A stretch of DNA of 64,000 nt from Candidatus Eiseniibacteriota bacterium. Its GTDB lineage: Bacteria; Eisenbacteria; RBG-16-71-46; CAIMUX01; VGJL01. The notes beneath the pieces were generated by a model. The model was not told where the DNA came from. It saw only the letters and a list, made by a program, of their open reading frames with translations, and made no database searches. The stretch covers positions 192,001 to 256,000 of the forward strand of contig CAWBWI010000001.1 of the NCBI GenBank assembly GCA_963792585.1. The letters run 5' to 3'. Made by a program: the position numbers and the translations under genes. Shown in pieces: positions 12,087 to 38,481 of the stretch (position 1 is its first letter; each line of letters opens with the position of its first letter).

Positions 12087-13072
12087 CCGAGATCTTCCTC
12101 CGGGCTGGGGCCATGGTGAGAGGGTCTGGATCCATATCCTTCGCCCACAATGCTACCGCCAACCGCTACGGCTGTCAGCCGTCCCTGCCCGTCCCGAAGT
12201 CTCAAGTAGTCGAGGTGAAACGCATGATGGTCGGGTCCGTGAGCGCGAAGGTGGGACGTCCTTCAGAAAGAATCAAGTCGCCGCAAGGATGGGGTCGGAT
12301 CCAAAAAACAGAGAATTGTCCGAAGACTGTCCTCTCTGGGGAGCCGCTGATCCAAGCCACGAGCTTATCGTGGCGAGAACGGTGAACGGAGCCTCGGTGG
12401 TGCATGCCATCGGGGCTCGTTCTTATCCGCAGAAACGCGTGCGTGTTGCGGTGGTGACGCGGCGATGCGGATTCTCTGTTTCGAAACTATATCGAGCGTA
12501 ACCGGAGAGAACCCTCCGTTTCTGGTGACCAAGAGGTCGAAACTCTCTCCGTCTCCGTTCTCTACCCGCCAATGGTGAACGACCCGGTTCGCTCCGGGGT
12601 ACCAGAGAGGACTCTTTTCGAACTACCACTCGCGAATCGACGTAACCGCAATGGCATCAACGAAGACGACTCCCGACCGGTGAACGCTCCACACCCCTGG
12701 TAGATGGTGCTGGAGTCGCTGCCTCGATCGCGGTATCCTCGTTGCGAATTCTCCAGACGCATTCGCCGCCCGACCGCGACGATGAGCGCCAGTCCGGTGC
12801 ACGCGGGATCGAGGTTCTGGAGTCAAGTATGCAGGTCGCAGTTTTCTATCGTGCCCCAGAGGAGCCTCTTGCCCGAGAGGTCAGAGGGGCTCGTGCATCC
12901 AAGGGCCAAGCTCCGGCCCCGAGCACTCATCTCCGACCACGTCTGGACCACACTTCCTCAGCATCCTTTCCAGCGGGTATTCCGACACCACAGCGAATGC
13001 TCAAGGTGACAGTGATGGTGCGAACCGCTCGCAGTGCTGGCCGCATTGGGAGCATGTAGGAGGTCGCAGGCC

Positions 13073-14752
13073 ATGAGACACACAGGATGGTGCTCATCTG
13101 CGCGAGTCTTACTTCTCCAGGCTCTGATAACGCTCGTCGGGATCGCCCTATCGTCATCGGCCCGGGCAGGCCGCAATGCCAACGGTGCTCTGGTAGTGCA
13201 CGTCCTGGAGCGCATTAACGGATACACAGTCTGTGATCTCGGGCCTTCACAAGTCTGTTCCCGGACGTTGCCTACTGCGTGCGCGGATCTCCTCACGGAG
13301 GTTACAGACGACGTTCCCACTCTCTACATCCTTGCAAGTTTCACGGAGATATCCTCGCCGGGGGTCAGCGCCATCCGGTTCGGGATCACTCACAACCTTC
13401 CCAGCGAGTATTGGATCGTGGCGAGGTGCTCGAACCCCTGCATCGAGGATGCAGTTGAGTATCCGGACCCGGACTGGCCGCTGGGTAGCGGACAGGGCCG
13501 GTCGGGCAACAGCGTCGTGTTCAGCTCGCCAGTCTACGATCGATTTTTCAAGTTCTACTACTTCGGGCTCGAGGGGATCTGGTACGACGGGGGGCCGTAC
13601 TTCTTCGCGACCTCGCCTTACAGCGAGATGGAGCCCGCCCTCTTCTACGATGACGCTACGCCCCCCAACACGGACATCTGCGCTAACTTCGGTATCGTGC
13701 GGTGGCTCCAGATGGGCTACAACCAGTGCCCGCACGACACGTTGGGTGCATGCTGCTTCGAGGATGGGACGTGTGAGGTAATACTCGGTGCGGCATGCAG
13801 TGCCCAACACGGGACCTTCCTGGGGTACTTCACCACCTGTGACTCAGTTTACTGTCCCCAGCCCCAAGCGTGCTGCCTGTGCGATGGGGAGTGTCGGTTT
13901 CTCGTCGCGTCGGCGTGTGAGGGTCTGAGCGGTGAGCCCCAAGGCGGAGGCACCACGTGTGATCCGAGTCCGTGCCAAACGTCCGAAGCCTGCTGTATCG
14001 AGGATGGTACTTGCCTCTTCACCACACCGTGCCTGTGTCGGCAGGCTGGCGGCCTACCGTGGGGTGCAGGGACAGTGTGCGATCCGAATCCGTGCTCGGC
14101 ATTTGAGGCTTGTTGTTTCCCGGACGGCACCTGTCAGTTCACGGCCCCATTGACTTGTCAGCAAATGGGCGGGCTATCTTGGGGCCCGGGGACCTTATGC
14201 GATCCGAATCCCTGCCCGCAGCCTAGAGCGTGCTGCTTCCCCGACGGCCACTGCGACATCATTCTTGCGCCGCAGTGCGTCGCTGACGGTGGTCTGCCGC
14301 AGGGGGAGAGGGAATGCGAGCCAAACCCTTGTCTCGTAGGAGCCTGCTGCATCAACGATGCCTGTGAAATCTACTCGTCTGCGAACTGCGCCTCACATGA
14401 CGGCGTCTACATGGGCGACGGGACGCTGTGCAGCCCGAATCCTTGCGTCTCATCGATCGACGATGCATCAGAGATCCCCTCACTTCATCTCTCGGCGTTG
14501 CCCAATCCCAGCACAGGGCAGGTCGTGATCCGGTACCATCTACCCGAGCCTACGACGGTCACAATCGAAGTGTTCAACGCGGCGGGGGAATTGTTGTGGC
14601 GGGTGTCGGAGGGCGTACAGGCAGCAGGCCAACACTCCATGCGGTGGGATGGCAAGGATGACAACGGGGACGATGTGCCATCGGGGGTGTATGTCGCGAG
14701 GATCGTGACGACAGTGGGAGCCTTGACGGAGCGGCTTGTATTGATGAGATGA
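13073..14752 (+). CDS. Secreted protein: N-terminal GxNAxGxLxVH domain, 6 Cys-rich repeats, FlgD-Ig CTD
   Basis: AGGAGG RBS, signal peptide, six ACCxxDGxC...CxPNPC repeats, C-terminal PNPS...WDGKDDNG...SGVY. Confidence 0.8.
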   Translation: MRHTGWCSSARVLLLQALITLVGIALSSSARAGRNANGALVVHVLERINGYTVCDLGPSQVCSRTLPTACADLLTEVTDDVPTLYILASFTEISSPGVSAIRFGITHNLPSEYWIVARCSNPCIEDAVEYPDPDWPLGSGQGRSGNSVVFSSPVYDRFFKFYYFGLEGIWYDGGPYFFATSPYSEMEPALFYDDATPPNTDICANFGIVRWLQMGYNQCPHDTLGACCFEDGTCEVILGAACSAQHGTFLGYFTTCDSVYCPQPQACCLCDGECRFLVASACEGLSGEPQGGGTTCDPSPCQTSEACCIEDGTCLFTTPCLCRQAGGLPWGAGTVCDPNPCSAFEACCFPDGTCQFTAPLTCQQMGGLSWGPGTLCDPNPCPQPRACCFPDGHCDIILAPQCVADGGLPQGERECEPNPCLVGACCINDACEIYSSANCASHDGVYMGDGTLCSPNPCVSSIDDASEIPSLHLSALPNPSTGQVVIRYHLPEPTTVTIEVFNAAGELLWRVSEGVQAAGQHSMRWDGKDDNGDDVPSGVYVARIVTTVGALTERLVLMR

Positions 14753-18671: not shown

Positions 18672-20870
18672 TCAACGCAGCAGGACAAGGGAGCGCGAGA
18701 GGCTCACGCCCGCGCCGAGGACGCGGGCCCGATAGATGCCGGCGCTGACGCGATTGCTGCCGTCATCGAGGCCGTCCCAGGCGATGACCTGCTCCCCGGC
18801 GTTGAAACCGCCGTCGCGCAGCGTCCGAATCAGACGTCCGGAAACGTCGTAGATGCCGATCCTGAGGTATGTGGCGCGCTCGAGATCGAAGCGTAATGTT
18901 GTCGTTCCCCGATGCGGATTGGGGGACGCGGAGAGGAGACGGACCCCGGCCGACGAAGTCGCGAGGACCTCTTCGCTCTGCCCGGTGGGCGAAGTTCCGA
19001 GGGCGGTGGGGAGTTGGCCGCGGAGCGAGCTACCAAGCGCGAAGTACTCGTATGCGCCCATGTCCACGATCTCGTTCACATTGCGCGCATACCCGTCGAG
19101 GTCCGTCTCACCCTGATCCGGATCGAACAACGGGTCGACCGCATCCACACACGGCGATCCACCGGTGAGGTGGTACGGGTAGATCGGATCGTTCAGGAAT
19201 GCGGGGGACTGAGGCACGATGTTGTTCGTCCAGGTGAGTGTGCCGTTTCCCCCTTGCCCGCTCACGCCACCCATTCCGCCTTCCACGTCGCACCAGTCGA
19301 CGAGGAGGCTGTATGCTTGGGCCGCCTTGCGATTGAGAGCCATCTCCGCCCCGGCGGGAGCACTGTCATCCCAGAAGATGCTGTTCCGTACGACCGTGCC
19401 GATGCCGGAATCGTATAGCCCCCCGCCTTCGACGGAGGCGGTGTTTCCGACGCTCGTGCAGTTTCGGAACAGCACTTCGCGAGTGGCCGACCCAGTCGCG
19501 GCCAGCACGGCCGCACCGCCGCCGAACCCCTGACCCCCGCCGATCCCGCTCGCCGAGTTACCGTTGAAAAGGCAGTCCAGAACCTGAAGCGGCGGCCCCG
19601 AGGAGCTGTTGTCCCCCAGATAGAAGAGACCGCCCCCCTTGCCGGAGGCGGAGTTCCCCAGGAACTTGCACCGCGTGATCAGCGCGCCTGAGTTCCACGC
19701 GAAGATCCCCCCGCCCCGCTGCCCGGCGTTTCCGATGAGGATGCAATCGCGAACAATCCCCGAAGTCTGCGGCCCCAGGTAGATCGCCCCACCATCGCCC
19801 CCCGGCGCCGAGCCGGCCAGGATCGTGAACCCCGCGAGGATTGACTCGGAGGTCTGCTGCTGGTTCATGCGGAATCCACGGCCCGCCAACGCGCAGTTGA
19901 TGAAGCACGTATCCGGCCCATTCGCGCTCCGAATCGTCAGGGGGAAGTTGGGGAAGTCGATGTCGACGTTCCCCACCCCCGTGTAGGTTCCATCACGGAT
20001 GACGATCTGCCAATACGGCGAAGAGTGATCCACCGCGTCCTGGATCCGGTGGTACGGGCGTTCGTAGGTGCCGTCCTCGGTTTCGTCGATGAAGTCATCT
20101 ACATACAGGACCGGTGGTGGGACGAACGTATAAATGATGTAGGTGGTTGTGTCGTGGTAGTCGTTGGGATCGCTCGTCTCATAGGGAGGTGGAGCGGTTA
20201 CTTCCTCGAGGTCGGTCCGACCGTCGTCGTCCGTGTCCATGTCGTACGGATTCGTGCAATGCACGAACATCTCCTGATAGTCGTTCAGGCCGTCCCCGTC
20301 ATGGTCGAGCGTCTGCAGAACCGAGTCGCTCGGGCGGTTGAGGATCACGAACGAGTGGAGATGCTCGGGCGCGATCGGGACCTCGGGGTGTTCACCGTGG
20401 AAGGACACCAGCAGCCGTCGCATGTCCTCCCCGACGAATGCCTCTTCCGCCGGCAGCTCGACCTGGATCAAGTAGTAGGAGTCGACCTTGGTGATTGCGT
20501 CGGTCTTGAGCCTCACGTGCGCGTTGCCGTTTCCGCCTCCTGGATTCGCCCAGGAGAACTGGAAATCCTGGAGGGGGGGATCCTGGATCGTGGAGCGGAC
20601 CCAGACATGGTAGAAGACGCTCGAGAGGTTGTGGTTTCCGAAGTAGTTCGCACCTTGGTCCATATAGAAGTTGACGAAGTCGGAGCAGGAAACTGTAGAG
20701 GCCGTTCGAGAAGGATCGCGGAAGAGAGACCCCGCGTCCTGACGGGGTCGGTTCGCCTCGTTGCGCAGGTAATAGAGCCCACCTACGTCGGTGGCGAGCG
20801 CTGCGGTTGCGAAGATCTCACCTGCTAGGGTGAGGGAAAATGCTACAAGGATGGGATGAAGTCCTTTCAC
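18672..20870 (-). CDS. Secreted protein: DxDGDGL Ca-binding repeats, right-handed beta-helix, FlgD-Ig CTD
   Basis: AGGAGG RBS + GTG at 20870 and signal peptide. DHDGDGLNDYQE/DTDDDG, IQDAVD...GTYTGxGN, GNxAxxGGG repeats, SPCVDA...DMGAYE, CTD. Confidence 0.8.
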   Translation of the reverse strand: MKGLHPILVAFSLTLAGEIFATAALATDVGGLYYLRNEANRPRQDAGSLFRDPSRTASTVSCSDFVNFYMDQGANYFGNHNLSSVFYHVWVRSTIQDPPLQDFQFSWANPGGGNGNAHVRLKTDAITKVDSYYLIQVELPAEEAFVGEDMRRLLVSFHGEHPEVPIAPEHLHSFVILNRPSDSVLQTLDHDGDGLNDYQEMFVHCTNPYDMDTDDDGRTDLEEVTAPPPYETSDPNDYHDTTTYIIYTFVPPPVLYVDDFIDETEDGTYERPYHRIQDAVDHSSPYWQIVIRDGTYTGVGNVDIDFPNFPLTIRSANGPDTCFINCALAGRGFRMNQQQTSESILAGFTILAGSAPGGDGGAIYLGPQTSGIVRDCILIGNAGQRGGGIFAWNSGALITRCKFLGNSASGKGGGLFYLGDNSSSGPPLQVLDCLFNGNSASGIGGGQGFGGGAAVLAATGSATREVLFRNCTSVGNTASVEGGGLYDSGIGTVVRNSIFWDDSAPAGAEMALNRKAAQAYSLLVDWCDVEGGMGGVSGQGGNGTLTWTNNIVPQSPAFLNDPIYPYHLTGGSPCVDAVDPLFDPDQGETDLDGYARNVNEIVDMGAYEYFALGSSLRGQLPTALGTSPTGQSEEVLATSSAGVRLLSASPNPHRGTTTLRFDLERATYLRIGIYDVSGRLIRTLRDGGFNAGEQVIAWDGLDDGSNRVSAGIYRARVLGAGVSLSRSLVLLR

Positions 20871-21447
20871 CGTGACACCTCCTGTGATGGGACGGGGGGT
20901 CAGTTCAACCAAGCTCCAGAGGATCACGCGGGCCGGAGAGGGGCTGGGTACAGGGACCGCACCCACCGCGGGGTTTCCCAGCCGGCGTCCCTCGGCCGGC
21001 CGCGCCGCATCCTAAGGCTCGGCGCGGAACAGACAGAATGTGATCTAGCTCGCGAGCGCAGATCCGAAGCGCGCTCGACTGCTTCCGAGAGCAATCACCA
21101 TGCCACGCACGCTGAACCGGGAGTCCGCTTTGGACGCGGGATTCCGCGCTGATCGCGGATCGGATCGCACGGAATTGTGCGATTTCGCACATGGGGTGTT
21201 CGCGATCGCACGCGGCTCCGTCCAATGGCCGGACGCTCTTGGTCGTCTGCTCGGGTGGAGGTCTGGGACGCGTTCAACGATTCGTGATGGCACGGGTCCT
21301 ACGCCCGCTCACCCCGCTCACCCAAGCCCTACACGCCCGGCCCGCGCTCGTGGTACAATCCATGCGCCTTCGATCACGCGGATTCGATGGAGAGGAGTCT
21401 TCCTGTGAGAACCGCGATGGGCGGGACGGTGATTGCGAGGTGGTGAC

Positions 21448-24049: not shown

Positions 24050-24295
24050 GGAACCTCCTCACCGAGATTGCGAGTCGGCGCCGCGATGACCGATCCACGG
24101 ATGCGTGAAGAAAGGGTGTTGGATCGGGCATGGCCACGATCTGAAGAATTTCTCCGTGGATGCGCGGCGCTGCCAGCCCGGGACCCTGCAATCATCTGCT
24201 GAGGCGGCAGATCCCTGGGTCAGCCTTCTTGTGCGGCGACCAGGAAGAGAGCGAGCTTCCTCCACTACATATGCGCCTACCGCCCCTCGCGGGAG

Positions 24296-24499
24296 TATAC
24301 TCATTCCGCCTTCAACTACGCGGACGCGACCGGAACGGCATTCACCGTGAGAGCCGCGAGCTTGATCCCGCTGATTTCCGATGAGTCCGAGCAGCGGAAC
24401 GGGTGATCGTCCGTTCACCCGAGATCACCAATCCGCTTGAACGCTTGGCGTCCTGCTGCTGCTAGGAGGCGACTGGGACAAAGGGAAAGGGGCCGCCCG
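24296..24499 (+). promoter_or_regulatory. -10 box (TATACT) plus conserved ~196-nt 5' leader, copy 1
   Basis: Near-identical to 27962-28165; conservation starts just after the -10-like hexamer. Confidence 0.6.
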
Positions 24500-27400
24500 A
24501 TGAAGAATCAAGGGTCGTTGCGGATCGGATGCCTCTGTTTGGGTCTCTGCTTGATCTTCGTGATGCTCTGCCCGGCAGTTGGAATTGCCGGCTCGCCGAC
24601 GCTTGCGACCACTCATCGCGGAAGCGGGCCGCCGGCGGTGTTGCTCGGGGATAGGGATGGATGGTGGGACGAGCCTCCGGACCTCAACGGAGTGGCGCTG
24701 AGCTCGGAGATCGTCTCCATGTTTGGGTTCGAGACCGAAGTCGCAAACGACTTCCATTCTTCAGCGCAAACAACCATCTTTGAGGCCGTGTGGTGGGGAG
24801 CATACTACAACGACGATGGAACCGGTCCAAACGTCACTGCATTCAACTTACGATTCTACGATGACGCGGGTGGCGTTCCGGGCTCCATCGTAGCCGAGTA
24901 TCTCGAGTCTGTCCCGACGGACACGTTCACCGTAGGTCAGGGCATCGAGGGACCCGTCTACGAGTACCATGCTGCCGTGTCGGCCAATATCGGAGAGGGA
25001 ACATACTGGTTCTCGGTCCAAGCATGCGACCACGTGTTCCCGCAATGGGGTCGCCTTTCAGCGGGCCATGTGACCGGCTACGAGTCTACGTTCCGTTCGG
25101 AGTACTTCGGGTACCCAAACTGGACTCGTAGTGTGGATGTTTTTGGAGTCGCCATGGACGCGAGTCAGCGGTTCTATACAGATCCACCGATTCCCGGAGC
25201 GTGTTGCTTCGTCGATCTGCATTGCGCGTCACTCGTGTCGCAGAATTGCATGCAGCTCGGGGGTGTATTCCAGGGACCCGGGATCCCCTGTGACCCGAAT
25301 CCTTGCCCGTCCATTCCGATGGCATGCTGTTTCCCCGAAGGGCATTGCGAGCTATTGCCTCAGGCTGCCTGCGATGAAGTCGGGGGGTCATCGGGTATCG
25401 GATTGAGCTGTGACCCAAACCCCTGTCCCCCCCCATCGATGGCATGCTGCTTGCCGGATGGGACCTGTGATTTCATCAGCGAGAGCCGTTGCCGATCGCG
25501 GGGTGGAACGCCCCTCGGATACCCGAGCACCTGTGATCAAGCTTCCTGTCCGCAAGGCGGCGCATGCTGCAATCCAGCAACAGGACACTGCATGGTGGTA
25601 ACCGAAGACCTGTGCACGTCTCCGAGTGTCTGGATGGGTGTGGAAACGACCTGCGATCCGAATCCGTGCCCTCAGCCAACCGGTGCATGCTGCAATCCGA
25701 CCACGGGCGAGTGCATCGTGACCATGCAAGCGGACTGCAGCCACGACTGGCAAGGCGCGTGGACGACCTGTGCGCCGAATCCTTGTCCGCCGCCGACCGG
25801 CGCGTGCTGCAATCCGACCACGGGCGACTGCGCTGTGACAGCGCAGTCGAGTTGTGGCTACAACTGGCACGGGGTGGGGACGACGTGCACGCCGAATCCC
25901 TGTCCACAGCCAGGCGGCACAACCTACTACGTGCGCACCGACGGAGGCGGACCCTCGCCACCCTATTTCCCGACGATCCAGGCGGCGATCGACTACGTCA
26001 ACCTTGAGACCGGAGACGTGATCGAGCTGATCGGCACACCCTTCACCGGCGTGGGGAACTGCAACGTGAACTTCAACGGAAAGTTGGTCACGGTCCGATC
26101 CCAGGGGGGCGACCCCGATCAGTGCGTCATCGACTGCGGGGGAACCCACGGATTCGTCTTCCAGTCCGGGGAAGACAACCGAGCCGTGCTCGAAGCAATC
26201 ACGATATCCGGCGGATATATGGAGTCCGGGCACGGCGGCGGAATCAACATCTCCTCCTCCTCACCGTGGATCAAGGCCTGCAAGATCATCCACTTCACGA
26301 TCGACCATCAAAGCCGGGGTGGAGGCGTCTACTGCGGTGCCTCGGCCTCTCCCCTATTGACCGACTGCACGATCTCGGACTGCACCTTGGGAAGTAGTCG
26401 GTATCCGGTAGGACTCGGTGGGGCGGGGATCTATAGCGACGAATCGTCGATCCTGACGATGCGGAACTGCGTTGTCACCGGCAACTACGTGTACTCAAAT
26501 GCAAACGCAATCGGGGGTGGCATCGCCTGCTATGACGGAGATATCTCCGGATGCACCATCGACTCCAACCATGCGCTTTACGGTGGTGGGATCTACTGTG
26601 CGGCGGGAGTCATCGCGGGTTGCGACATTCGAGGCAACAGAGGGGGTATGGGTGCGGGAGGAGTGCAGGCCGGCTTCAATACGACGATTCAGGACTGCGT
26701 GATCGCCGACAATCACGGTGACGTCGGTGGAGTCGTGGGGGACAGCCTGACGATCGCAGGTTGCACGATCAGCGGTAACCGCGGCAGCCCGGGTGGGATC
26801 CGGGGAAGCAATCTCCAAGTCAACGACTGTGTCATCACGGGCAATATGGGCTACTCTGCCGCCGGGGGGATTGAGGTCGCGAGTTCGAGCATCATCAGCT
26901 GCACCATCAGCAGCAACTGCTCGGACAACGAGAATGGGACGGGGGGGCTGTCCGGAACCGATACGCAGGTGAGCCAGACCGTCCTTTGGGGGAACACGAA
27001 CCCAAGCAACCCGCTGGGCCACGAGTCGGTCGGCGAGAACCTGACCCTCAGCTGCTGCGATTTCGATCCATTAGGCATGAGCGGCAGCATCACCTATCTC
27101 GGTCCGCAGATGTACGCGGACCCCTTGTTTTGTGCTCCTGAATCATGCGAACCCCCACCCGAGGGAGGGGACTACACCGTCCGATCCGACTCCCCCTGCC
27201 TGCCCCAAGGCAACTACTGCGATCTCTTGATCGGAGCGCTCGGCCAGGGGTGTCTTGCCCCCGCAGGCATCGAGGATCACGTGGTTGAGGCGACGCTCGG
27301 TCTGATGCCGGGGAGGCCCAATCCGTTCGCCGATCAGACGATGATCGTGTTTGGTCTCGCGAAGGAAGCAGTGATCGATCTCGCAATCTACGATGTGAGC

Positions 27401-27571
27401 GGCCGGTGCGTGCGACGGCTCACTTCGAGAACGCAGTATGCGGCCGGAGTTCATCAGATGATCTGGAAGCGCAACGACGACGCAGGACGAATCCTCCCCT
27501 CAGGCGTTTATGTCTGTCGGCTTCGTATGGGGGGAGAGGTGCAATCGAGCCGTCTGATCGTGCTGCACTGA
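24500..27571 (+). CDS. Modular secreted protein A: WWDEPPDLNG domain, 6 Cys repeats, beta-helix, FlgD-Ig CTD
   Basis: Signal peptide, ANDF...WWG...YWFSVQA domain, ACC...PNPC repeats, TIQAAID plus GGGI repeats, SPCLP...IGA, CTD. Confidence 0.85.
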   Translation: MKNQGSLRIGCLCLGLCLIFVMLCPAVGIAGSPTLATTHRGSGPPAVLLGDRDGWWDEPPDLNGVALSSEIVSMFGFETEVANDFHSSAQTTIFEAVWWGAYYNDDGTGPNVTAFNLRFYDDAGGVPGSIVAEYLESVPTDTFTVGQGIEGPVYEYHAAVSANIGEGTYWFSVQACDHVFPQWGRLSAGHVTGYESTFRSEYFGYPNWTRSVDVFGVAMDASQRFYTDPPIPGACCFVDLHCASLVSQNCMQLGGVFQGPGIPCDPNPCPSIPMACCFPEGHCELLPQAACDEVGGSSGIGLSCDPNPCPPPSMACCLPDGTCDFISESRCRSRGGTPLGYPSTCDQASCPQGGACCNPATGHCMVVTEDLCTSPSVWMGVETTCDPNPCPQPTGACCNPTTGECIVTMQADCSHDWQGAWTTCAPNPCPPPTGACCNPTTGDCAVTAQSSCGYNWHGVGTTCTPNPCPQPGGTTYYVRTDGGGPSPPYFPTIQAAIDYVNLETGDVIELIGTPFTGVGNCNVNFNGKLVTVRSQGGDPDQCVIDCGGTHGFVFQSGEDNRAVLEAITISGGYMESGHGGGINISSSSPWIKACKIIHFTIDHQSRGGGVYCGASASPLLTDCTISDCTLGSSRYPVGLGGAGIYSDESSILTMRNCVVTGNYVYSNANAIGGGIACYDGDISGCTIDSNHALYGGGIYCAAGVIAGCDIRGNRGGMGAGGVQAGFNTTIQDCVIADNHGDVGGVVGDSLTIAGCTISGNRGSPGGIRGSNLQVNDCVITGNMGYSAAGGIEVASSSIISCTISSNCSDNENGTGGLSGTDTQVSQTVLWGNTNPSNPLGHESVGENLTLSCCDFDPLGMSGSITYLGPQMYADPLFCAPESCEPPPEGGDYTVRSDSPCLPQGNYCDLLIGALGQGCLAPAGIEDHVVEATLGLMPGRPNPFADQTMIVFGLAKEAVIDLAIYDVSGRCVRRLTSRTQYAAGVHQMIWKRNDDAGRILPSGVYVCRLRMGGEVQSSRLIVLH

Positions 27572-27587
27572 TACGGGACGACTCTGA

Positions 27588-27641
27588 GTCGAACCTCAGC
27601 GTCACGGGGGCGATCTTCTCTCTGCCACGAGAGGGGATCGC
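27588..27641 (+). repeat. Conserved 3' hairpin element, copy 3
   Basis: GGGGCGATCTTCTCTC-TGCCAC-GAGAGGGGATCGC, core 39 nt after the stop. Confidence 0.7.
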
Positions 27642-27958
27642 TCCTTTGCTTCATGCCAAGCCGCATGATCGTGATCCATCAGGGTTGGCACCTGAGTGCG
27701 GGGTGTCGAACCTGGAGAGTTGTTAGTAGACTGTCCTCTCCAGGGAGCCGAGATCGAATCGATCCACGGCTTCGCGAGTCGGGCTTGTTGGAGCGGTGAG
27801 GTCACAGTCGGAAGTCTTTCACCATAGTGTGCCGGCCGCAAGTTCAGGCCCCAGCAATCATCGAGTGCGACGGCAGATCCGGGACTACGCCTCCTCTGGT
27901 GGCGCCCAGGAAGAGAACAGGCTTCCATCACTTCGTTGGCGCCCGTCACCACCGGCAG

Positions 27959-28165
27959 TGATATAATCTTTCCGCCTTCAACTACGCGGATGCGACCGGA
28001 ACGGCACTTACCGTGAGAGCCGCGAGCTTGATCCCGTTGATTTCCGATGAGTCCGAGCAGCGGAACGGGTGATCGTCCGTTCACCCGAGATCACCAATCC
28101 GCTTGAACGCTTGGCGTCATGCTGCTGCTCGGAGGCGACTGGGACAAACGGAAAGGGGCCGCCCG
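27959..28165 (+). promoter_or_regulatory. Extended -10 promoter (TGaTATAAT) plus conserved 5' leader, copy 2
   Basis: TG-A-TATAAT at 27959-27967; the leader matches 24304-24499 with 7 substitutions by my count. Confidence 0.65.
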
Positions 28166-31100
28166 ATGATGAATCAAGAGTCGTTGCGGACCGGATGCCT
28201 CTGTTTGGGTCTCTACTTGATGATCGTGGTGCTCTGTCCGGCAATCGGAATTGCTGGCTCGCCGACGCTTGGGACCACTCATCGCGGAAGCGGGCCGCCG
28301 GCGGTGTTGCTCGGGGATAGGGACGGCTGGTGGGACGAGCCTCCGGATCTCAATGGAGAGCCGATGAGTTCGGAGATCATCTCCTCATATGGCTTCGAGA
28401 CCGAAGTCGCCAACGACTGCTATTCTGCGGCGCAGACGACCGTCTATGAAGTCGTGTGGTGGGGAGAATACTTCAGCGGAGATGCCGAACCGAATGTCAG
28501 CGCGTTTAACTTACGGTTCTATGCGGATGCTGGCGGTGTTCCGGGTTCGATCGCGGCCGAGCATCTCGAAGCCGCCCCGACTGAGACAATCGCTCTTGGT
28601 CAGGGCATCGACGGACCGGTCTACGAGTACCATGCAGCCGTGTCGGTCAATATTGGAGTGGGAACCTACTGGTTCTCGGTGCAAGCGTGCGACCACGAAT
28701 TCCCGCCGCAATGGGGTCGCCTCGCAGCAGCGCAGGTGACGGGCAATCAAGCGGCAATTCGCTCCGTCGCATACGGGTTTCCGGACTGGGTTCCTTGCGA
28801 GGAATTCTGGGGATTCCCCCTGGACGCGAGTCAGAGGTTCTATGCAAGCTCGGATCCCGGAGCCTGTTGCTTTGCCGATCTGCTTTGCGAGTTCCTCTTG
28901 CAGGGGGAGTGCGCTCAACTCGGGGGAGCATGGCAGGGACCCGGGAGCGCCTGTGACCCGAATCCCTGCCCATCCAGTCCGCTGGCATGCTGTTTTCCCG
29001 ATGGACACTGTGAGCAGTTGTCTCAGTCTGTCTGCGATGAAGAAGGGGGAATATCGGGTGTAGCGACGGGCTGCGTCCCAAACCCTTGCCCGCCCCCCTC
29101 GAAGGCATGCTGCTTCCTGGACGGGCACTGTGAGTTCACAACGGAAAGCGCTTGCCGCTCCGAAGGCGGAAGGCCCCTAGGTTACCCCAGCACTTGCGAG
29201 CAGGACACCTGTACACCCGGCGCATGCTGCAGTCCGGCAACGGGAAGCTGTCTGCTGGTGACCGAGGACCTTTGCGCGTCCCCCGGCGTGTGGATGGGGC
29301 CCGGTACGGCCTGCCTTCCGAATCCATGCCCTCGACCACCCGGCAGCACGATCGTAGGGTGGGGAGCATCGGTTCTTGTGGAGCCTGACGCGCTCGAGAA
29401 CCTCGTTGCGGTCTCAGCCGGGTTCGGCCACAGCCTGGGTCTGAAGGCGGACAGCTCGATCGTGGCATGGGGAGCCAACTACTCCGGCGAGTGCTATGTC
29501 CCCGATTGGAACGAGGACTTCGTCGCAGCCGCGGCAGGCGGTCAGCACAGCCTGGGCCTGAAGGTCGATGGCTCAATTGTGGCATGGGGTTGGAACAACG
29601 ACGGCCAATGCACTGTGCCCTCACCCAACACCGGGTTCGTCGGCATCGCGGCTGGAGCGGACCATAGCCTGGGTCTCAAGACTGACGGCACCATCGTTGC
29701 TTGGGGGAGCAACAGCTGGGGAAAATGCGATGTTCCCGAACCCAACACCGGCTTCGTCGCAGTCGCTGCAGGGTTCGGACAAAGTCTGGGCCTGAGGGCC
29801 GACGGCTCTATCGCGGCGTGGGGGCGCAACATCGAGGGCGAATGCAACGTGCCGGCGCCGAACACCGAGTTCGTCGCTGTCTCGGCAGGCTATTCCCACA
29901 GCCTTGGTCTCAAGGCCGACGGCACCATCGTTGCTTGGGGGGATAACACCTCCGAGCAGTGCAACGTCCCCGAACCCAATACCGGCTTCGTGGCCGTCGC
30001 AGCAGGGCTACACCACAGCCTGGGCCTGAAGACTGGCGGTACCGTCGTTGCCTGGGGGGACAATTCCTCCGGACTGGGCATCATACCTGCACCCAACACG
30101 AGCTTCACCGCCATCGCGGCAGGGATCGACTACAGCCTGGGTCTGAAGGACTACGGCTCCGTCATGGCATGGGGCGAGGACGGTTCCGGCCAGTGCAACA
30201 TCCCTCCACCCAACGCGGAGTTCATTGCCGCCGCGGTTGGAGACGGACATGTTCTGGCACTCAAGAACGATAGCTCCATCGTCACATGGCCCGACCAGAG
30301 CAGCGTTCCTGAACCCAACACCGGCTTTGTCGCCGTCGCAGGAGGCGGGTGCAGCCTGGGTCTGAAAGCCGATGGATCCATCGTGGCATGGGGGCTCAAC
30401 GACTACGGCCAGTGCAATGTTCCTGCGCCAAACGCCGGCTTCGTCGCCGTCGCGGGGGGCAGGAACCACAGCCTGGGGCTGAAGGCAGATGGCGCCATCG
30501 TGGCATGGGGGGACAACGCCAGCGGCCAATGCACTGTTCCCGCACCCAACACCGGCTTCATCGCCATCGAGGCGGGGGAGAACCACAGCTTGGGGCTCAA
30601 GGCAGACGGCTCCATCCGAGCATGGGGGAGGAACACCAACGGGCAGTGCAATGTTCCTGCACCCAACAACTGCTTCATTGCTGTCGCGGCAGGTGCAAAG
30701 CACAGCCTGGGGCTCACAGTTGACGGCACCATCGTGGCATGGGGTAACAACAACCATGGCCAGTGCTGGGTTCCGGAAGACGGTCCCTTCGTCGCCGTCG
30801 CGGGAGGAAATGAGCACAGCCTGGGTCTCAAGTTCAACGGGACAGTCGTGGCATGGGGATACAACTTCTACGGTCAGTGCAATCAACCAAGAATCAACAC
30901 AGGCATCAGCGGCATCGCGGCAGGCTTTCACAGCAACCTCGTCCTGACTCGTTTGTCGCTTGGTGCTTGCTGCCACGCCGACGGCACATGCACCTTCACA
31001 ACCCAGGAAGGGTGCCAACCTCCAAACATCTACCTGGGAGAGGGAACAAACTGCCGATCCAGCCTGTGTCCGAATTCCACTGTTGACGGAGCTTCTCAGA

Positions 31101-31381
31101 TCGTGGAGTCGCTGGCTCTCACTGTCGCTCCGAGTCCGAGCTCGCAAGACGTCTCGATCCTGTACCGCTCGCCTGTGGCGACGGCTATCTCCTTAGAGGT
31201 GTTCAACGCGGCCGGAGGACTCGTGCGGCGACTGGTGGAGGGTCAGCGGCCGGCTGGGTCCTTCTCGACGCGCTGGGACGGACGGGACGACCGCGGGCGT
31301 GAGGTGCCGACGGGTGTGTACTTCGCGCGCATCGTGACGGCGCGGGGAATGGGGACAGGAAGAGCTGTGATTGCGAGGTGA
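28166..31381 (+). CDS. Modular secreted protein B: WWDEPPDLNG domain, 4 Cys repeats, ~14 RCC1/BLIP-II-like repeats, 1 Cys repeat, FlgD-Ig CTD
   Basis: N-terminus homologous to A and C; ~39-aa VAAGxxHSLGLKxDGxIVAWGxNxxGQCxVP repeats; CTD. Confidence 0.88.
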   Translation: MMNQESLRTGCLCLGLYLMIVVLCPAIGIAGSPTLGTTHRGSGPPAVLLGDRDGWWDEPPDLNGEPMSSEIISSYGFETEVANDCYSAAQTTVYEVVWWGEYFSGDAEPNVSAFNLRFYADAGGVPGSIAAEHLEAAPTETIALGQGIDGPVYEYHAAVSVNIGVGTYWFSVQACDHEFPPQWGRLAAAQVTGNQAAIRSVAYGFPDWVPCEEFWGFPLDASQRFYASSDPGACCFADLLCEFLLQGECAQLGGAWQGPGSACDPNPCPSSPLACCFPDGHCEQLSQSVCDEEGGISGVATGCVPNPCPPPSKACCFLDGHCEFTTESACRSEGGRPLGYPSTCEQDTCTPGACCSPATGSCLLVTEDLCASPGVWMGPGTACLPNPCPRPPGSTIVGWGASVLVEPDALENLVAVSAGFGHSLGLKADSSIVAWGANYSGECYVPDWNEDFVAAAAGGQHSLGLKVDGSIVAWGWNNDGQCTVPSPNTGFVGIAAGADHSLGLKTDGTIVAWGSNSWGKCDVPEPNTGFVAVAAGFGQSLGLRADGSIAAWGRNIEGECNVPAPNTEFVAVSAGYSHSLGLKADGTIVAWGDNTSEQCNVPEPNTGFVAVAAGLHHSLGLKTGGTVVAWGDNSSGLGIIPAPNTSFTAIAAGIDYSLGLKDYGSVMAWGEDGSGQCNIPPPNAEFIAAAVGDGHVLALKNDSSIVTWPDQSSVPEPNTGFVAVAGGGCSLGLKADGSIVAWGLNDYGQCNVPAPNAGFVAVAGGRNHSLGLKADGAIVAWGDNASGQCTVPAPNTGFIAIEAGENHSLGLKADGSIRAWGRNTNGQCNVPAPNNCFIAVAAGAKHSLGLTVDGTIVAWGNNNHGQCWVPEDGPFVAVAGGNEHSLGLKFNGTVVAWGYNFYGQCNQPRINTGISGIAAGFHSNLVLTRLSLGACCHADGTCTFTTQEGCQPPNIYLGEGTNCRSSLCPNSTVDGASQIVESLALTVAPSPSSQDVSILYRSPVATAISLEVFNAAGGLVRRLVEGQRPAGSFSTRWDGRDDRGREVPTGVYFARIVTARGMGTGRAVIAR

Positions 31382-31537
31382 CAAGGCAAACTGGAGACGG
31401 CACTTTGGCTCGGGGTCACATTGAGTTCCCAGGCAGTTGCAGCGCGATCGATGGTCGGCTCTGAGGTGAATGCGCTCCCGCTCGGTGTTCAACTGCTGAT
31501 CGAGGTCCAACTGGTACAAGATGAAGGAGGCCGTACG

Positions 31538-34500
31538 ATGCAGAGTCAAGGGTCTTTGCGGATCGGACGCCTGTGCTGGGGTATCTGCTTGAGCTTCATC
31601 ATGCTCTGTCCGGCAGTTGGAATTGCTGGCTTGCCGACGCTTGGGCCCACTCATCGAGCAAGCGGGCCGCCGGCGGTGTTGCCCGGGGATAGGGACGGAT
31701 GGTGGGACGAACCTCCGGATCTCAACGGATGGGCGCTGACGTCAGAGATCATTTCTGCTCTTGGGGTAGTGACCGAGACCGCAAACGACTTCTACTCCTC
31801 ATCGTCGACGCTCATTTATGAAACCGTCTGGTGGGGAGAATACATGGGAGGAGGCGAACCAAACGTCACAGCATTCAACTTGCGATTCTACCATGACGCC
31901 GGTGGCGTCCCGGGTTCCATCGTTGCCGAGTATCTCTCATCCACCCCGACGGAGACGATCGCACTGGGACAGGGCCCCGAGGGACCGATCTACGAGTACC
32001 ATGCATCCGTAATGGTCGACGTCGGAGACGGATCATACTGGTTCTCGGTCCAGGCGTGTGACCATGAGTTCCCGCCGCAATGGGGTCGCCTTGCGGCGGG
32101 GCAGGTAACAGGCCACCAATCTACGTTCCGTTCAGAGTACTTCGCCTACCCGGACTGGACTCAGATTGAGCAAGTCTTGGGTATCCCTCTGGACGTGAGT
32201 CAGCGGTTCTATGCAGTTCCTTCGGTCCTCGGCGCGTGCTGCTTCGCAGATCGGCATTGCGAGTCCCTCTTGCCAGGGGACTGCGTTCAACTCGGGGGGG
32301 CATGGCAGGGGTCCGAGAGCACCTGTGACCCGAATCCTTGCCCGTCCGTTCCGATGGCATGCTGTTTCCCCGATGGGCACTGCGAACCATTGTCTCAGGC
32401 TGCCTGTGATCAAGGAGGGGGATCATCGGGCATCGGTGTGAGTTGTGAGCCGAACCCCTGTCCGCAACCCTCGATGGCATGCTGCCTCCCGGACTGGCAC
32501 TGTGAGTTCGTCACCGAGAGCGCTTGCCGCTCCGAAGGTGGAAATCCACTCGGGTACCCGAGCACGTGTGACCCGAATCCATGCCCGTCGATTCCAATGG
32601 CCTGCTGTTTCCCCGATGGGCACTGCGAGCAGTTGCCTCAGGCAGGTTGCGATGAGGGAGGGGGATCATCGGGCATCGTAATAAGCTGCGACCCAAACCC
32701 CTGTCCCCCGCCGTCGATGGCGTGCTGCTTCCCGGACGGGCACTGTGAGTTCACCACGGAAAGCGTTTGCCGTTCCGAAGGTGGGAATCCACAGGGGTAC
32801 CCGAGCACCTGCGATCAGGCATCCTGCCCACAGGCCGGCGCGTGCTGCAATCCAGCGACGGGGCATTGCATGGTGGTAACCGAAGATCTGTGCACGCCCC
32901 CCAGCGTCTGGATGGGCGTGGAAGCTGCCTGCGATCCAAATCCCTGCCCTCAGCCGTCCGGCGCGTGCTGCAATCCGACCACGGGCGACTGCACGCTGAC
33001 GACGCAGGCGAGCTGCAGCGACAACTGGCACGGGGAGTGGACAAACTGCGATCCGAATCCTTGTCCGCAGCCGATCGGCGCGTGCTGCAATCCGACCACG
33101 GGCGGCTGTACGGTGACGATGCAGGCGAACTGCAGCTACAACTGGCATGGGGTGGGGACGACCTGCACCCCGAATCCGTGTCCGCAGCCCGGTGGCGCAA
33201 TCTATTATGTCCGTTCCGACGGGGGCGTACCCTCCTCGCCCCCCTATTTCCCGACGATCCAGGCGGCAATCAACTACGTGAACCTCGTGACAGGAGACGT
33301 GATCGAGCTGATCGGAACGCCCTTCACCGGCGTGGGGAACCGCGACGTGGACTTCAACGGAAAGCTGGTCACGGTTCGGTCCCAGGGTGGTGACCCCGAC
33401 CAGTGCGTCATCGATTGCCAGGGGGCCGGCCGGGGATTCGTGTTCCAGTCCGGAGAAGACAACCGGGCAGTGCTCGAGGCGATCACGATTTCCGGCGGGT
33501 ATATGGAGTTCGGGGGCGGTGGTGGAATCGCTATCTTCTCCTCCTCCTCGCCTTGGATCAAGGGCTGCAAGGTCGTCAACTGCATTATCGATCATGGCGG
33601 CGGGGGCGGCGTTGTTTGCGGCAACTCCGTTTCTCCTCTCTTGACCGACTGCGCGATCGTCGGCTGCAGTGCGGGGAGTCCTCGATATCCAGCGGCTGGA
33701 GGTAGTGGGATTTTCAGCGGTACATCGTCGCTCCTGACGATGCGGAACTGCGTTGTCGCCGACAACTACCTATATGGAGGAAACGGAGCTGGCATTGCCT
33801 GCGGCAACGGGGAGATATCCGGATGCACCATCAACTCCAACGATCAGCATGGCGGGGGGCGAGGGGGTGGGATCTACTGCGAGACGGGAGTCATCGCGAA
33901 CTGCAACATCCAAGGGAACTCTGGCGTGGAAGGGGCGGGTTGCGCGGCCGGGGCCAATACAACAATTCAGGACTGCGCGATCGCCAGTAACGTCAGTGAA
34001 GGTGGTGGTGGTGGTGTCATGGGTGACAGCCTGACGATCACAGGGTGCACGATCAGCGACAACAGTGGCGAAGCGGGCGGTATCTGGGGGAACGTCCTCC
34101 ATGTCAACGACTGTGTCATCACGGATAACGGCGGTTATTACGGCGCGATTCGAACTGCGAGTTCGAGCATCATCAGTTGCACCATCAGCGGCAACCGAGC
34201 ATATAGCCAGGTCGGTGCAGGCGGGCTGCTTGGAACTGACACGCAGGTGATCCAGACCATCCTGTGGGGAAACACGAACACGAACAACCCGCAGAACAAC
34301 GAATTGAACGGCTCGAACGTGACGCTCATCTGCTGCGATATCGACCCATCAGGCGCGACCGGCAGCATCACCTATCTTGGCCCGCAGGTGTTCTCGGATC
34401 CCCTCTTCTGTTGTCCGGTACCGTGTGAGGCCCCCCCCGAGGGGGACTACACTCTCCGGTCCGACTCCCCCTGCCTGCCCCAAGGCAACTACTGCGATCT

Positions 34501-34846
34501 CTTGATCGGAGCGCTCGGCCAGGGGTGTCTTGCCCCCGCAGGCATCGAGGATCACGTGGTTGAGGCGACGCTCGGTCTGATGCCGGGGAGGCCCAATCCG
34601 TTCGCCGATCAGACGGCAATCGTCTTTGGCCTCGCGAAGGAAGCAGTGATCGATCTCGCAATCTACGATGTGAGCGGTCGCTGCGTGCGGCGGCTCGCTT
34701 CGCGAACAGCTTACCCGGCCGGAGTTCATCAGATGATCTGGAAGCGCAACGACGACGCAGGACGAATCCTCCCCTCAGGCGTCTATGTCTGTCGGCTTCG
34801 TATGGGGGGAGAGGTGCAATCGAGCCGTCTGATCGTCCTGCGCTGA
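31538..34846 (+). CDS. Modular secreted protein C: paralogue of A with 8 Cys repeats, beta-helix, FlgD-Ig CTD
   Basis: AAGGAGG RBS; colinear with A apart from an extra pair of Cys repeats. Confidence 0.85.
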   Translation: MQSQGSLRIGRLCWGICLSFIMLCPAVGIAGLPTLGPTHRASGPPAVLPGDRDGWWDEPPDLNGWALTSEIISALGVVTETANDFYSSSSTLIYETVWWGEYMGGGEPNVTAFNLRFYHDAGGVPGSIVAEYLSSTPTETIALGQGPEGPIYEYHASVMVDVGDGSYWFSVQACDHEFPPQWGRLAAGQVTGHQSTFRSEYFAYPDWTQIEQVLGIPLDVSQRFYAVPSVLGACCFADRHCESLLPGDCVQLGGAWQGSESTCDPNPCPSVPMACCFPDGHCEPLSQAACDQGGGSSGIGVSCEPNPCPQPSMACCLPDWHCEFVTESACRSEGGNPLGYPSTCDPNPCPSIPMACCFPDGHCEQLPQAGCDEGGGSSGIVISCDPNPCPPPSMACCFPDGHCEFTTESVCRSEGGNPQGYPSTCDQASCPQAGACCNPATGHCMVVTEDLCTPPSVWMGVEAACDPNPCPQPSGACCNPTTGDCTLTTQASCSDNWHGEWTNCDPNPCPQPIGACCNPTTGGCTVTMQANCSYNWHGVGTTCTPNPCPQPGGAIYYVRSDGGVPSSPPYFPTIQAAINYVNLVTGDVIELIGTPFTGVGNRDVDFNGKLVTVRSQGGDPDQCVIDCQGAGRGFVFQSGEDNRAVLEAITISGGYMEFGGGGGIAIFSSSSPWIKGCKVVNCIIDHGGGGGVVCGNSVSPLLTDCAIVGCSAGSPRYPAAGGSGIFSGTSSLLTMRNCVVADNYLYGGNGAGIACGNGEISGCTINSNDQHGGGRGGGIYCETGVIANCNIQGNSGVEGAGCAAGANTTIQDCAIASNVSEGGGGGVMGDSLTITGCTISDNSGEAGGIWGNVLHVNDCVITDNGGYYGAIRTASSSIISCTISGNRAYSQVGAGGLLGTDTQVIQTILWGNTNTNNPQNNELNGSNVTLICCDIDPSGATGSITYLGPQVFSDPLFCCPVPCEAPPEGDYTLRSDSPCLPQGNYCDLLIGALGQGCLAPAGIEDHVVEATLGLMPGRPNPFADQTAIVFGLAKEAVIDLAIYDVSGRCVRRLASRTAYPAGVHQMIWKRNDDAGRILPSGVYVCRLRMGGEVQSSRLIVLR

Positions 34847-34862
34847 TCGGGAGCTGCCGAAG

Positions 34863-34919
34863 GTCAATCATCTGAGGTGGTGGGGCGATCTTCTCTCTGC
34901 CATGAGAGAGGGTCGCCCC
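34863..34919 (+). repeat. Conserved 3' hairpin element, copy 4
   Basis: GGGGCGATCTTCTCTC-TGCCAT-GAGAGAGGGTCGCCCC, core 39 nt after the stop. Confidence 0.7.
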
Positions 34920-36862: not shown

Positions 36863-36937
36863 GGCGCTATCGTCTAGGGGTCAGGACGGATGGTTCTCAG
36901 CCATCAAACCGGGGTTCGAATCCCCGTAGCGCTACCA
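36863..36937 (+). tRNA. tRNA-Glu(CTC)
   Basis: GGCGCTA/TAGCGCT acceptor stem, anticodon arm GATGG-TTCTCAG-CCATC, GGTTCGAATCC T-arm, 3' CCA. Confidence 0.95.
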
Positions 36938-36977: not shown

Positions 36978-38303
36978 TCATCCCTGAAGCTCTCGCTCGC
37001 CCTTGCGCTCATCCACCGTCCAGAGGATCAGCCCCCCCACGAGGAAGAAGAGGCTGACCGATAGGATCGCGGGGCGCAGGCCGCCGGCGATCCAGGCGAT
37101 CGCCCCGAAGACCGCGGGGCCCAGGACCGACGCGAATCGCCCCGCGACGGAGAAGAATCCAAAGATCTCCGCCGAGCGTTGGGGGGGAATCCAGCGGGCG
37201 AGCAGCGAGCGTGAGACCGTCTGGATGCCGCCCAGGAACAGCCCGGCGGTCGCGCCGATCCACCAGAACTCCCGGCGGGGGGCGCCGAAGATCCCCGTCC
37301 AGCGCGCCCAGAGGGTGAGCAGGAAGAAGGCTGCGATCTGGACGAGGATCGTCTGCTTGTGCCCGACCCGGTCGGCGATCCCGCCGGCGAGGAGCGAGCC
37401 GATGAATCCGGTCGCCTGGATCAGGAGGAAGAGGAGGACCAGCTCCGCGTCGGCAAAGCCCAGCTCCGCTCCCGCGAAGATCGACGCGACCGCGACGATC
37501 GTCTGAATCGAATCGTTGTAGAGCAGGAAAGCGATCAAGTAACGGAGGAAGTGGGGAGACGCCTTCAAGCCCCGCAGGGTCGCAACCGCGCGATGGAGCG
37601 CCGCACCGACGCTCGCGCGCCCATGGGAGCTGGGCGGCAGCGGCTCCGGCCGTGTGAGCAGTGGAAGGGCGATCAGGATCCACCAGATTCCGGCGAGCGC
37701 GAAGGATGCGCGCAGAGCCGCCCCGGCATCGGCAAGACCGAAGATCGCCGGTTTCTGCAGCATGAGCAGGTTGATGCCGAGGACGATGCCGCCTCCCAGG
37801 TACCCGAGTCCCCATGCGAGACCGGAGATCCTGCCGAGTCGATTCTGCTCGACGAGACCCGGGAGCAGCGCGTTGTAGATGACCGACGCAAGCGCAAAGG
37901 CCGCGTAGGCGATCCCGAAGAGAATCGAGCCGCGCAGCCACGCGCCCGGACCGACGGTCGCGAGCAGAACGGTCGAGGATGCGCCGATGATCGTGAGGAC
38001 GCGCAGCATCGCCATCCTTCGTCCCGCCGCGTCGGCGAGGGCTCCAAGGGGTGGAGCGGCAATCGCGACGAAGAGCATTGTGACCGAGACGAGCCAGCTG
38101 TAGAGCGTCGCGCCGGGGACTGTCGCGCCGAGCAGACGAACGCCCGTCGGTCCCCCCGCGACCTGCTGGGCGAAGTACTTGTTGAAGAGGACGGCGAGGA
38201 TCGTCGTCGCAAATGCCGAGTCCGCAACATCGTAGAGGCAGAATGCCGCGATGGCGCCGCGATCCGATCCTCTAGGGCCGCTTTGGAACAGCCTTTTGCT
38301 CAC
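36978..38303 (-). CDS. MFS transporter, UMF1/ATG22-like family
   Basis: LYDVADSAF, LGALAD, YNALLP, GYLGG, SRSLLAR...EIFGFF; about 12 TM segments. Confidence 0.88.
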   Translation of the reverse strand: MSKRLFQSGPRGSDRGAIAAFCLYDVADSAFATTILAVLFNKYFAQQVAGGPTGVRLLGATVPGATLYSWLVSVTMLFVAIAAPPLGALADAAGRRMAMLRVLTIIGASSTVLLATVGPGAWLRGSILFGIAYAAFALASVIYNALLPGLVEQNRLGRISGLAWGLGYLGGGIVLGINLLMLQKPAIFGLADAGAALRASFALAGIWWILIALPLLTRPEPLPPSSHGRASVGAALHRAVATLRGLKASPHFLRYLIAFLLYNDSIQTIVAVASIFAGAELGFADAELVLLFLLIQATGFIGSLLAGGIADRVGHKQTILVQIAAFFLLTLWARWTGIFGAPRREFWWIGATAGLFLGGIQTVSRSLLARWIPPQRSAEIFGFFSVAGRFASVLGPAVFGAIAWIAGGLRPAILSVSLFFLVGGLILWTVDERKGERELQG

Positions 38304-38481
38304 GGATCCCTCCGCCGAGAACGCGAGTCGATTAACTTCACAAGCTCTTCACCGATCCTCGATTGCCCGTGATGCCTCGAACAGCTATACTACCAAACGG
38401 TTTGGCCGGAGGATCGCCATGCTCGGAGCGCCTGCCGGCGACATGCACCATGCTCCAGATCATCCGCAAGGAGGGCCCCTC

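Follow-up and report, generated by a model that had tools for sequence, protein, structure and literature searches.

Three tandem paralogs of a modular, predicted exported protein family with a six-cysteine repeat in an Eisenbacteria genome

Introduction

Three neighbouring genes of an uncultured bacterium, here called A, B and C, encode proteins with a common N-terminal domain and common cysteine-rich (Cys) repeats followed by different modules, and this raises the question of whether such an arrangement is the work of a dedicated shuffling system or of ordinary gene evolution. The genes lie in a stretch of 64,000 nucleotides (nt) of a Candidatus Eiseniibacteriota genome (contig C1:192001-256000), called the window below; the genome comprises 5.4 Mb on 7 contigs (84% completeness). 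The original prediction, made from the window sequence alone, held that the repeats serve as recombination junctions and give a combinatorial repertoire of exported proteins on a variable-length disulfide stalk.

We have concluded, with a probability of about 0.7, that A, B and C are tandem paralogs in an eight-gene, lineage-specific family of modular exported proteins, whose differing architectures are likely the outcome of ordinary duplication, gene conversion and unequal crossing-over through long evolutionary time, with predicted type IX-like secretion or display. A fast or programmed combinatorial system was not supported.

Results

Architecture of the array

A, B and C were confirmed from open reading frames (ORFs) and translations as three tandem genes on the same strand (Table 1). 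Their N-termini consist of a hydrophobic, signal-peptide-like segment followed by GDRDGWWDEPPDLNG; inspection of the translations by eye shows an n-region that is basic, a hydrophobic stretch and a site of the AG|S type. The translations and the position-wise repeat tree described below bear out the signal-peptide-like start, N-terminal domain (the head) and orthologous Cys repeats that the original prediction had assigned to all three genes.

The layouts it had read for each gene were also confirmed. In A, the repeat hidden Markov model (HMM) finds six units (R1-R6), followed by a beta-helix; Pfam gives no match for this module at E <= 0.01, but over 455 residues it has 70% identity to that of C, and C matches Beta_helix (PF13229) with 55.4 bits against a cut-off of 25.9. 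C has eight units, which the repeat tree identifies as 1,2,3,2',3',4,5,6, and its nucleotide identity to A is about 80% along the whole length, with the extra R2-R3 copy. B (4+1 units) follows A through R4, with a nucleotide homology of 79.8% over 1518 nt (24181-25683 vs 27847-29343) that sets in some 320 nt upstream of the ATG and breaks off a few codons past the PNPC of R4. It continues with RCC1-type propellers (RCC1_2, PF13540, in 12 stretches with 306.7 bits and E 4.4e-94; PF25390 with 263 bits vs a cut-off of 150), and ends with an extra repeat (Rz) and a C-terminal domain (CTD) of the subtype of gene D (amino acid identity 51% to D vs about 29-32% to A). D itself has six units. C starts 157 nt past B and has no leader of its own.

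The heads are weakly similar to DUF7901 (PF25470). Against a cut-off of 24 bits, A scores 26.4, B 17.8 and C 19.6, so that only A is above it, and the match in A is partial, covering positions 3-72 of a profile of 205. The scores of four distant head paralogs are 16-21 bits.

Table 1. Features of the array, family members and closest relatives. Coordinates are those of the window unless a contig or locus is given.
Feature	Location	Strand	Description and evidence
Gene A	ORF from 24437, ATG 24500, to 27571	+	predicted signal peptide, head, R1-R6, beta-helix, CTD type alpha
Gene B	ORF from 28103, ATG 28166, to 31381	+	predicted signal peptide, head, R1-R4, RCC1 propellers, Rz repeat, CTD type beta
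Gene C	ORF from 31421, ATG 31538, to 34846	+	predicted signal peptide, head, R1,R2,R3*,R2',R3',R4,R5,R6, beta-helix, CTD type alpha
Gene D	13034..14752	+	different N-terminal domain, six Cys repeats, beta-like CTD
5' leader of A, family-specific	24170..24499	+	blastn and alignment
Head of A	24614..25198	+	beta jelly roll, lectin- or carbohydrate-binding module (CBM)-like fold, weakly DUF7901-like
Cys-repeat stalk of A, R1-R6	25199..25918	+	about 40 amino acids and six Cys per repeat; repeat HMM, tree
Right-handed beta-helix of A	25919..27286	+	amino acid identity 70% to C module, 80% to paralog H
CTD type alpha of A, type IX secretion system (T9SS) sorting domain of type A	27287..27568	+	TIGR04183 31.5 bits vs cut-off 23; nt identity 93% to CTD of C
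5' leader of B	27847..28165	+	nucleotide homology, blastn, alignment
Cys repeats R1-R4 of B	28862..29344	+	repeat HMM, tree
RCC1-type beta-propeller region of B	29345..30961	+	PF13540 x12, PF25390 263 bits
Terminal Cys repeat Rz of B	30965..31084	+	repeat HMM; clade with I5, E21, F18
CTD type beta of B, FlgD_ig-like	31100..31378	+	FlgD_ig 37.8 bits; amino acid identity 51% to CTD of D; nt identity 76-77% to E, F, I
Cys-repeat stalk of C	32234..33199	+	includes chimeric repeat C3 at 32477-32599
Other leader copies	L011:322-665 and 6821-7149	
Other leader copies	L012:7415-7740 and 17421-17755	-	
Paralogs A, B, C	window (contig C1)		
Paralogs E, F	contig C3:822601-834764		
Paralogs G, H, I	contig C4:267120-284278		
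P0005			head, 5 repeats, beta-helix, CTD alpha
P0008			head, R1, R4 (2 repeats), RCC1
P0009			head, R1-R4 (4 repeats), RCC1

The family in the genome and in relatives

Eight paralogs with heads at least 69% identical are present in three loci of the genome. H carries both cargos of the array, its order being head, R1-R4, one RCC1 block, an R4-type repeat, beta-helix and CTD alpha, and I resembles B in architecture. E and F contain three RCC1 blocks each with repeat groups in between (20 and 18 repeats), and G (contig C4:280918-284278) has an additional insert without Cys repeats and a third CTD type. The G insert, about 125 residues long, is flanked by R2 and by a chimeric R3/R1 repeat (L012 about 16090-16500, minus strand) and has no Pfam match at E <= 0.001. 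Single-base frameshifts occur in E, F, G and H (four of the eight paralogs). These are probably artefacts, because rpoB (contig C3:1191877-1195722), which is in about ten frame-hopping pieces, and sprA (contig C4:17198-21309) are likewise broken by indel errors.

Database matches of head plus stalk were named Candidatus Eisenbacteria and Planctomycetota/Phycisphaerae. Matches in genomes of the same family and order are only 35-53% identical; the nine loci inspected there contain 4-12 Cys repeats. Closer proteins (56-67% identical) from other assemblies, P0005, P0008 and P0009, match both layouts of the array, so that both main architectures persist across assemblies and the repeat number varies. 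Repeat number (2 to 20) and cargo differ among the eight paralogs and the three external relatives.

Searches with the head found no relative in genome contigs and only three distant loci in metagenomes (31-33% identity). The protein atlas gave only clusters without a name (scores up to 0.83). No paper was found in literature searches on Eisenbacteria with type IX secretion and on DUF7901, and none on topic was among the matches listed for Eisenbacteria with secretion.

Cys repeats and the chimeric repeat of gene C

The repeat unit has 40 residues with six cysteines, and the units are joined by Pro-rich PNPCPxP linkers. An HMM built from 25 seed repeats and run on the stop-to-stop ORFs of the genome detected 254 Cys repeats in 63 ORFs; no model in Pfam or NCBIfam matches the repeat. 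In a tree of 73 family repeats, the units cluster by position and not by gene, with support values from the Shimodaira-Hasegawa-like approximate likelihood ratio test (SH-aLRT) of 87, 97, 94 and 87 for R1, R2, R3 and R4, respectively. An R4-type repeat stands before all RCC1 blocks in the eight-gene family (10/10), and non-Cys modules nearly always have Cys repeats on their flanks. A structural model of R1-R3 (predicted local distance difference test, pLDDT, 80) presents each repeat as a short hairpin, a six-residue helix and a strand.

The third repeat of gene C (repeat C3) is an in-register chimera, which resembles C5 (R3 type) to about codon 31 and C1 (R1 tail) thereafter. The crossover zone is the shared GAGCACnTGTGA, at the fifth Cys codon. 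Repeats C3 and C5 are identical at 91/123 nt overall and at about 90% over the R3-type part, and the duplicates C2 and C4 at 99/123 nt (80%). Repeat G4 is chimeric in the same form as repeat C3.

These data qualify the original statement that switch points fall at repeat boundaries. The A-B homology ends just past R4; the duplication junction in C is not exactly at a boundary and lies about ten codons inside a repeat, at the fifth Cys codon.

Different histories of heads, cargo and C-terminal domains

By nucleotide identity, the CTDs form three types, namely alpha in A, C and H (87-93%), beta in B, E, F and I (76-96%) and gamma in G, with 42-51% identity between types. The heads of all eight are 73-86% identical, A being nearest to E, and the CTD types do not track head similarity. 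In the head DNA tree, A and E form a clade (support 96/97), and the approximately unbiased (AU) test on heads rejects the groupings {A,C,H} (p 0.0066), {B,E,F,I} (p 0.0081), {E,F} (p 0.0007) and {A,C} (p 0.013); {B,I} is not rejected (p 0.48). The per-domain phylogenies, which the original prediction had named as a check, are thus incongruent. The genes are mosaics, with one history for the head and another for CTD and cargo.

Traces of exchange are also found as exact matches between paralogs: 156 nt between A and C (27185-27340 = 34460-34615), 81 nt between A and B (24372-24452 = 28038-28118) and 254 + 251 nt between E and F. These tracts of 81-254 nt sit in backgrounds of roughly 77-80% identity. 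They were found by an exact-word scan; identity-filtered blastn missed them, with its high-scoring segment pairs running into diverged flanks. Two 100% rows of the tract table (B-C and H-I) were left out as overlaps of extended regions. The synonymous divergence (dS) of the CTD is 0.17 for A-C and 0.088 for E-F, and that of the head in the same pairs is 0.58 and 0.54. Module order also differs between E and F, since the first RCC1 block of E corresponds to the second of F (89.5% over 1016 nt).

The paralogs are old and under purifying selection, with a head dS of 0.41-1.0 and omega of 0.22-0.45. The mean dS of the orthologous R1+R4 is 0.72, vs 0.64 for the heads, and the stalk value is the lower one in only 10 of the 28 pairs. 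The longer high-identity tracts have the majority of their ends in leader, head, beta-helix or CTD, outside the Cys repeats; Cys-repeat DNA makes up 15-42% of each gene when flanks are counted. The mosaic genes, conversion tracts and chimeric repeat C3 support a history of recombination; that the repeats are its preferred sites is not supported.

All eight copies keep a start codon and a predicted signal peptide; the conserved leader is complete in six of them, and the other two stand closely behind a sister gene. There are therefore no silent cassettes. Pfam scans, which covered 26 ORFs of the window and nine ORFs of the loci on contigs C3 and C4, found no recombinase, transposase or reverse transcriptase. 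Programmed variation (silent-cassette gene conversion, shufflons or invertases, diversity-generating retroelements) is marked by promoterless silent copies that feed one expression site or by a linked site-specific recombinase or reverse transcriptase; the eight copies do not show the first mark, and the ORFs scanned do not show the second.

Conserved 5' leader

A leader of about 320 nt precedes six paralogs (A, B, E, F, G and H; 83-86% identical) and was found by blastn nowhere else in the genome. Its alignment has a mean column identity of 86%, a conservation above that of the heads, and the A-B pair reaches 96-98% identity in 90-nt windows. In C and I, each of which comes second in its pair (B-C and H-I), only the last 29 nt or so are retained. 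RNAalifold on the six leaders predicted 51 pairs, 0 of them with a compensatory change; a promoter scan gave 0 sites, and terminator-like sites numbered 6 vs 6.2 expected. An Rfam search over 12000-37000 returned nothing except a tRNA at 36863-36934.

Folds and structural look-alikes

Structural comparisons were made by Foldseek and by a VIA-wide search (48,161 chains for the repeat). The AlphaFold2 model of the head (pLDDT 89.7) is all-beta, a beta-sandwich of roughly 190 residues. Its best match is 4ci7_A, the lectin-like domain of Cwp84 (Z 12.4, root-mean-square deviation (rmsd) 3.0 over 147 residues), followed by a PBCV-1 capsid protein (Z 12.0), phage baseplate and tail-tip proteins (Z 10.4-11.3) and CBM35/36/6 (Z about 6-7); in Foldseek, the TM score is about 0.46. 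The head thus shares the beta jelly-roll fold with Cwp84 of Clostridioides difficile, receptor-binding domains of phage baseplates and CBM35/36/6, but the sequence identity to these modules is only 4-12%. Sequence searches of the Protein Data Bank (PDB) found no relative of the head, and for the beta-helix one chance-level match only (E 0.8).

Among solved structures, the Cys repeat resembles only one 43-residue module within the iRhom homology domain (IRHD) of animal iRhom1/2, with marginal scores. The profile match has E 0.018 with all six Cys in register; iRhom gives the top Foldseek matches (rmsd 1.5-2.2 over 39-43 columns, E 0.13-0.24) and leads the VIA-wide search (Z 5.1 and 4.5, the next chain 2.1; Z >= 2 in 3 of 48,161 chains). 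The authors of the iRhom2 structure reported that neither the PDB nor the human AlphaFold set gave them anything similar (PMC11248996). The IRHD forms one globular domain of a membrane pseudoprotease, whereas the Cys repeats here form a tandem stalk, and kinship is conjectural.

A second C-terminal tail and related genes

Apart from the CTDs, 108 ORFs of at least 80 amino acids end in a sequence like P-T-x-x-x-T-T-W-G-x-I-K-x-x-Y-R, here called the TWG tail; the control on reversed ORFs gave 0/35,976. NCBIfam and Pfam hold no model that matches it. Cys repeats occur in 36 of the 108 tail ORFs, and in all 36 the last repeat is within 15 residues of the tail. Among the 63 Cys-repeat ORFs, 38 end in the TWG tail and 14 in a CTD-like domain. 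In the window, the tail is for example on the ORFs ending at 16566 and 40612, and elsewhere it is found, among other places, at contig C3:409000-416500 and C6:728800-733600. It is also present in relatives, including six of the nine loci inspected in same-family and same-order genomes, where a tail of this type stands at the end. The tail is a candidate second sorting or anchoring signal.

The genome contains 38 head copies and 205 CTD-like places in total. Tandem arrays of short proteins are located at contig C3:409000-416500 (seven copies), C1:1056000-1060500 (four) and C6:728800-733600 (four); these proteins have a predicted signal peptide, a head 36-47% identical to that of A, at most one Cys repeat and, at the end, the TWG tail, so that the same head occurs with two different C-terminal endings. 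Selenocysteine was considered for three distant head paralogs and rejected, since all reported stops are upstream of the start codon.

Other genes of the window with the same Cys repeat are located at 15391-16566, 38251-39789 and 39608-40612, and contain an NHL propeller, a weak lamin-tail-domain match that stays under the Pfam cut-off, or nothing but repeats. CTD genes are numerous in the window: besides A-D, FlgD_ig is found on ORFs 28-1323, 2125-6588, 18672-20966 and 56725-60231.

Discussion

The architectures of the array could also be thought of as the output of an active combinatorial system, in which the Cys repeats are dedicated junctions and new head-stalk-cargo sets are still being made, as in surface or antigenic variation. 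Incongruent trees, the in-register chimeras C3 and G4, the swapped module order of E and F, the two cargos of H, the range from 2 to 20 repeats and the Cys repeats that nearly always flank other modules would all fit such a system. We regard it as improbable, because the paralogs are old and constrained, the C2/C4 duplicates and the C3/C5 pair have diverged, the dS of the Cys repeats is not below that of the heads, tract ends are mostly outside the repeats, and there are no silent cassettes and, in the ORFs scanned, no recombinase or reverse transcriptase. To place surviving junctions at small autonomous repeats, it would be enough that selection favours foldable products. That part of the original prediction is therefore not supported. 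Still less probable is that mosaic genes and identical tracts are artefacts, that is, chimeric joins or mis-polishing between paralogs in an error-prone metagenome assembly. Many indel errors (fragmented rpoB and sprA), 84% completeness on 7 contigs and four frameshifted paralogs point in this direction, but nucleotide differences of about 20% between the paralogs make collapse unlikely; each of A, B and C is open over more than 1000 codons, both architectures recur in independent assemblies (P0005, P0008 and P0009), and the incongruence is based on whole domains rather than short tracts.

Several points weigh against our reading of an ordinary paralog family with type IX-like secretion. The assembly carries frequent indel errors, and some sequence details may be wrong. 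The CTD of B reaches only 16 bits with TIGR04183, below the cut-off of 23, although FlgD_ig is above its own (37.8 vs 27). SprA-like matches are fragments only, split over several frames (best 156 bits), and searches for GldL and GldM gave no match but are uninformative, since the control matches nowhere either. Sec export, periplasmic disulfides, CTD cleavage and surface display are all predicted. It is conceivable, though rather unlikely, that the Ig-like CTD is not a T9SS signal at all and that the FlgD_ig-like domain is structural or binding, with anchoring or release by another route; the undetected GldL and GldM, the low score of B and the unrelated TWG tail on 108 ORFs would agree with this, and to our knowledge T9SS function is experimentally established only in Bacteroidota. 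On the other side, PorU sortase is present at full length (569 bits vs a cut-off of 420), about 3 kb away there is a weak PorV-like match (E 3.5e-4), with stronger ones elsewhere (118 bits, below cut-off), and SprA-like fragments exist. Furthermore, the 205 CTD-like places are C-terminal in every case looked at, and TIGR04183 passes in A (31.5 bits), C (28.8) and D (31.1).

In the mechanism that we propose for the paralog family, the proteins would be exported by Sec and form disulfides in the periplasm, and the CTD would be recognized by SprA/PorV/PorU-like machinery. If the CTD end is anchored, the distal tip would be formed by the lectin-like head, a likely binder of a polymer or another surface. 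The mosaicism would come from homologous recombination between paralogs, and because the repeats are short, in-frame, self-folding units, viable products would break near or inside them.

The original prediction knew of no description of such a system, which is too strong. For kgp, rgpA and hagA of Porphyromonas gingivalis, a published study describes 'combinatorial modularity' with identical repeats within and between genes, and puts the variation down to domain rearrangement and, in a proposed role, gene conversion (PMC5266723). Kgp, RgpA and HagA likewise are products of paralogous T9SS cargo genes with repeated adhesin modules and a conserved CTD, and in evolutionary terms the present family behaves similarly. 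Since the principle is known from the Porphyromonas gingipains, the array does not in itself represent a new type of system. The modules are unrelated, being CAD/DUF2436 in gingipains and a 40-residue six-Cys repeat, jelly-roll head, beta-helix and RCC1 here; gingipain variation is seen between strains, while here only diverged paralogs of one genome were compared (dS 0.4-1.0), and the phyla are different.

T9SS cargo with type A CTDs (TIGR04183/PF18962) has the same general plan of signal peptide (predicted in the present family), variable modules and Ig-like sorting domain, and the genome has a PorU homolog; differences are that the present family is likely outside Bacteroidota, that the CTD of B is below cut-off and that motor components were undetected by searches whose controls matched nowhere. 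Mosaic extracellular proteins of animals contain epidermal growth factor (EGF)-like and similar disulfide modules and were built by exon shuffling. They likewise use small, autonomous, disulfide-rich repeats to space swapped functional modules, but the genes described here have no introns, and shuffling here would require in-register homologous or illegitimate recombination in coding DNA. A wider and rather doubtful idea is that the six-Cys repeat is a lineage-wide, in-frame 'shuffling adaptor', the bacterial counterpart of the EGF-type module and possibly kin of the two Cys modules in the animal IRHD, and that in Eisenbacteria-like and Phycisphaerae genomes heads, cargo and either of two sorting signals, T9SS CTD or TWGxIKxxYR tail, have been freely recombined around it, the array being one snapshot.

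What is newly brought to light is an abundant six-Cys repeat without a Pfam or NCBIfam model, a head domain in 38 copies and a second candidate C-terminal sorting tail. The array shows how an uncultured, secretome-rich bacterium diversifies its surface or secreted proteins, in that various end modules are combined with a lectin-like head and a disulfide stalk that are used repeatedly.

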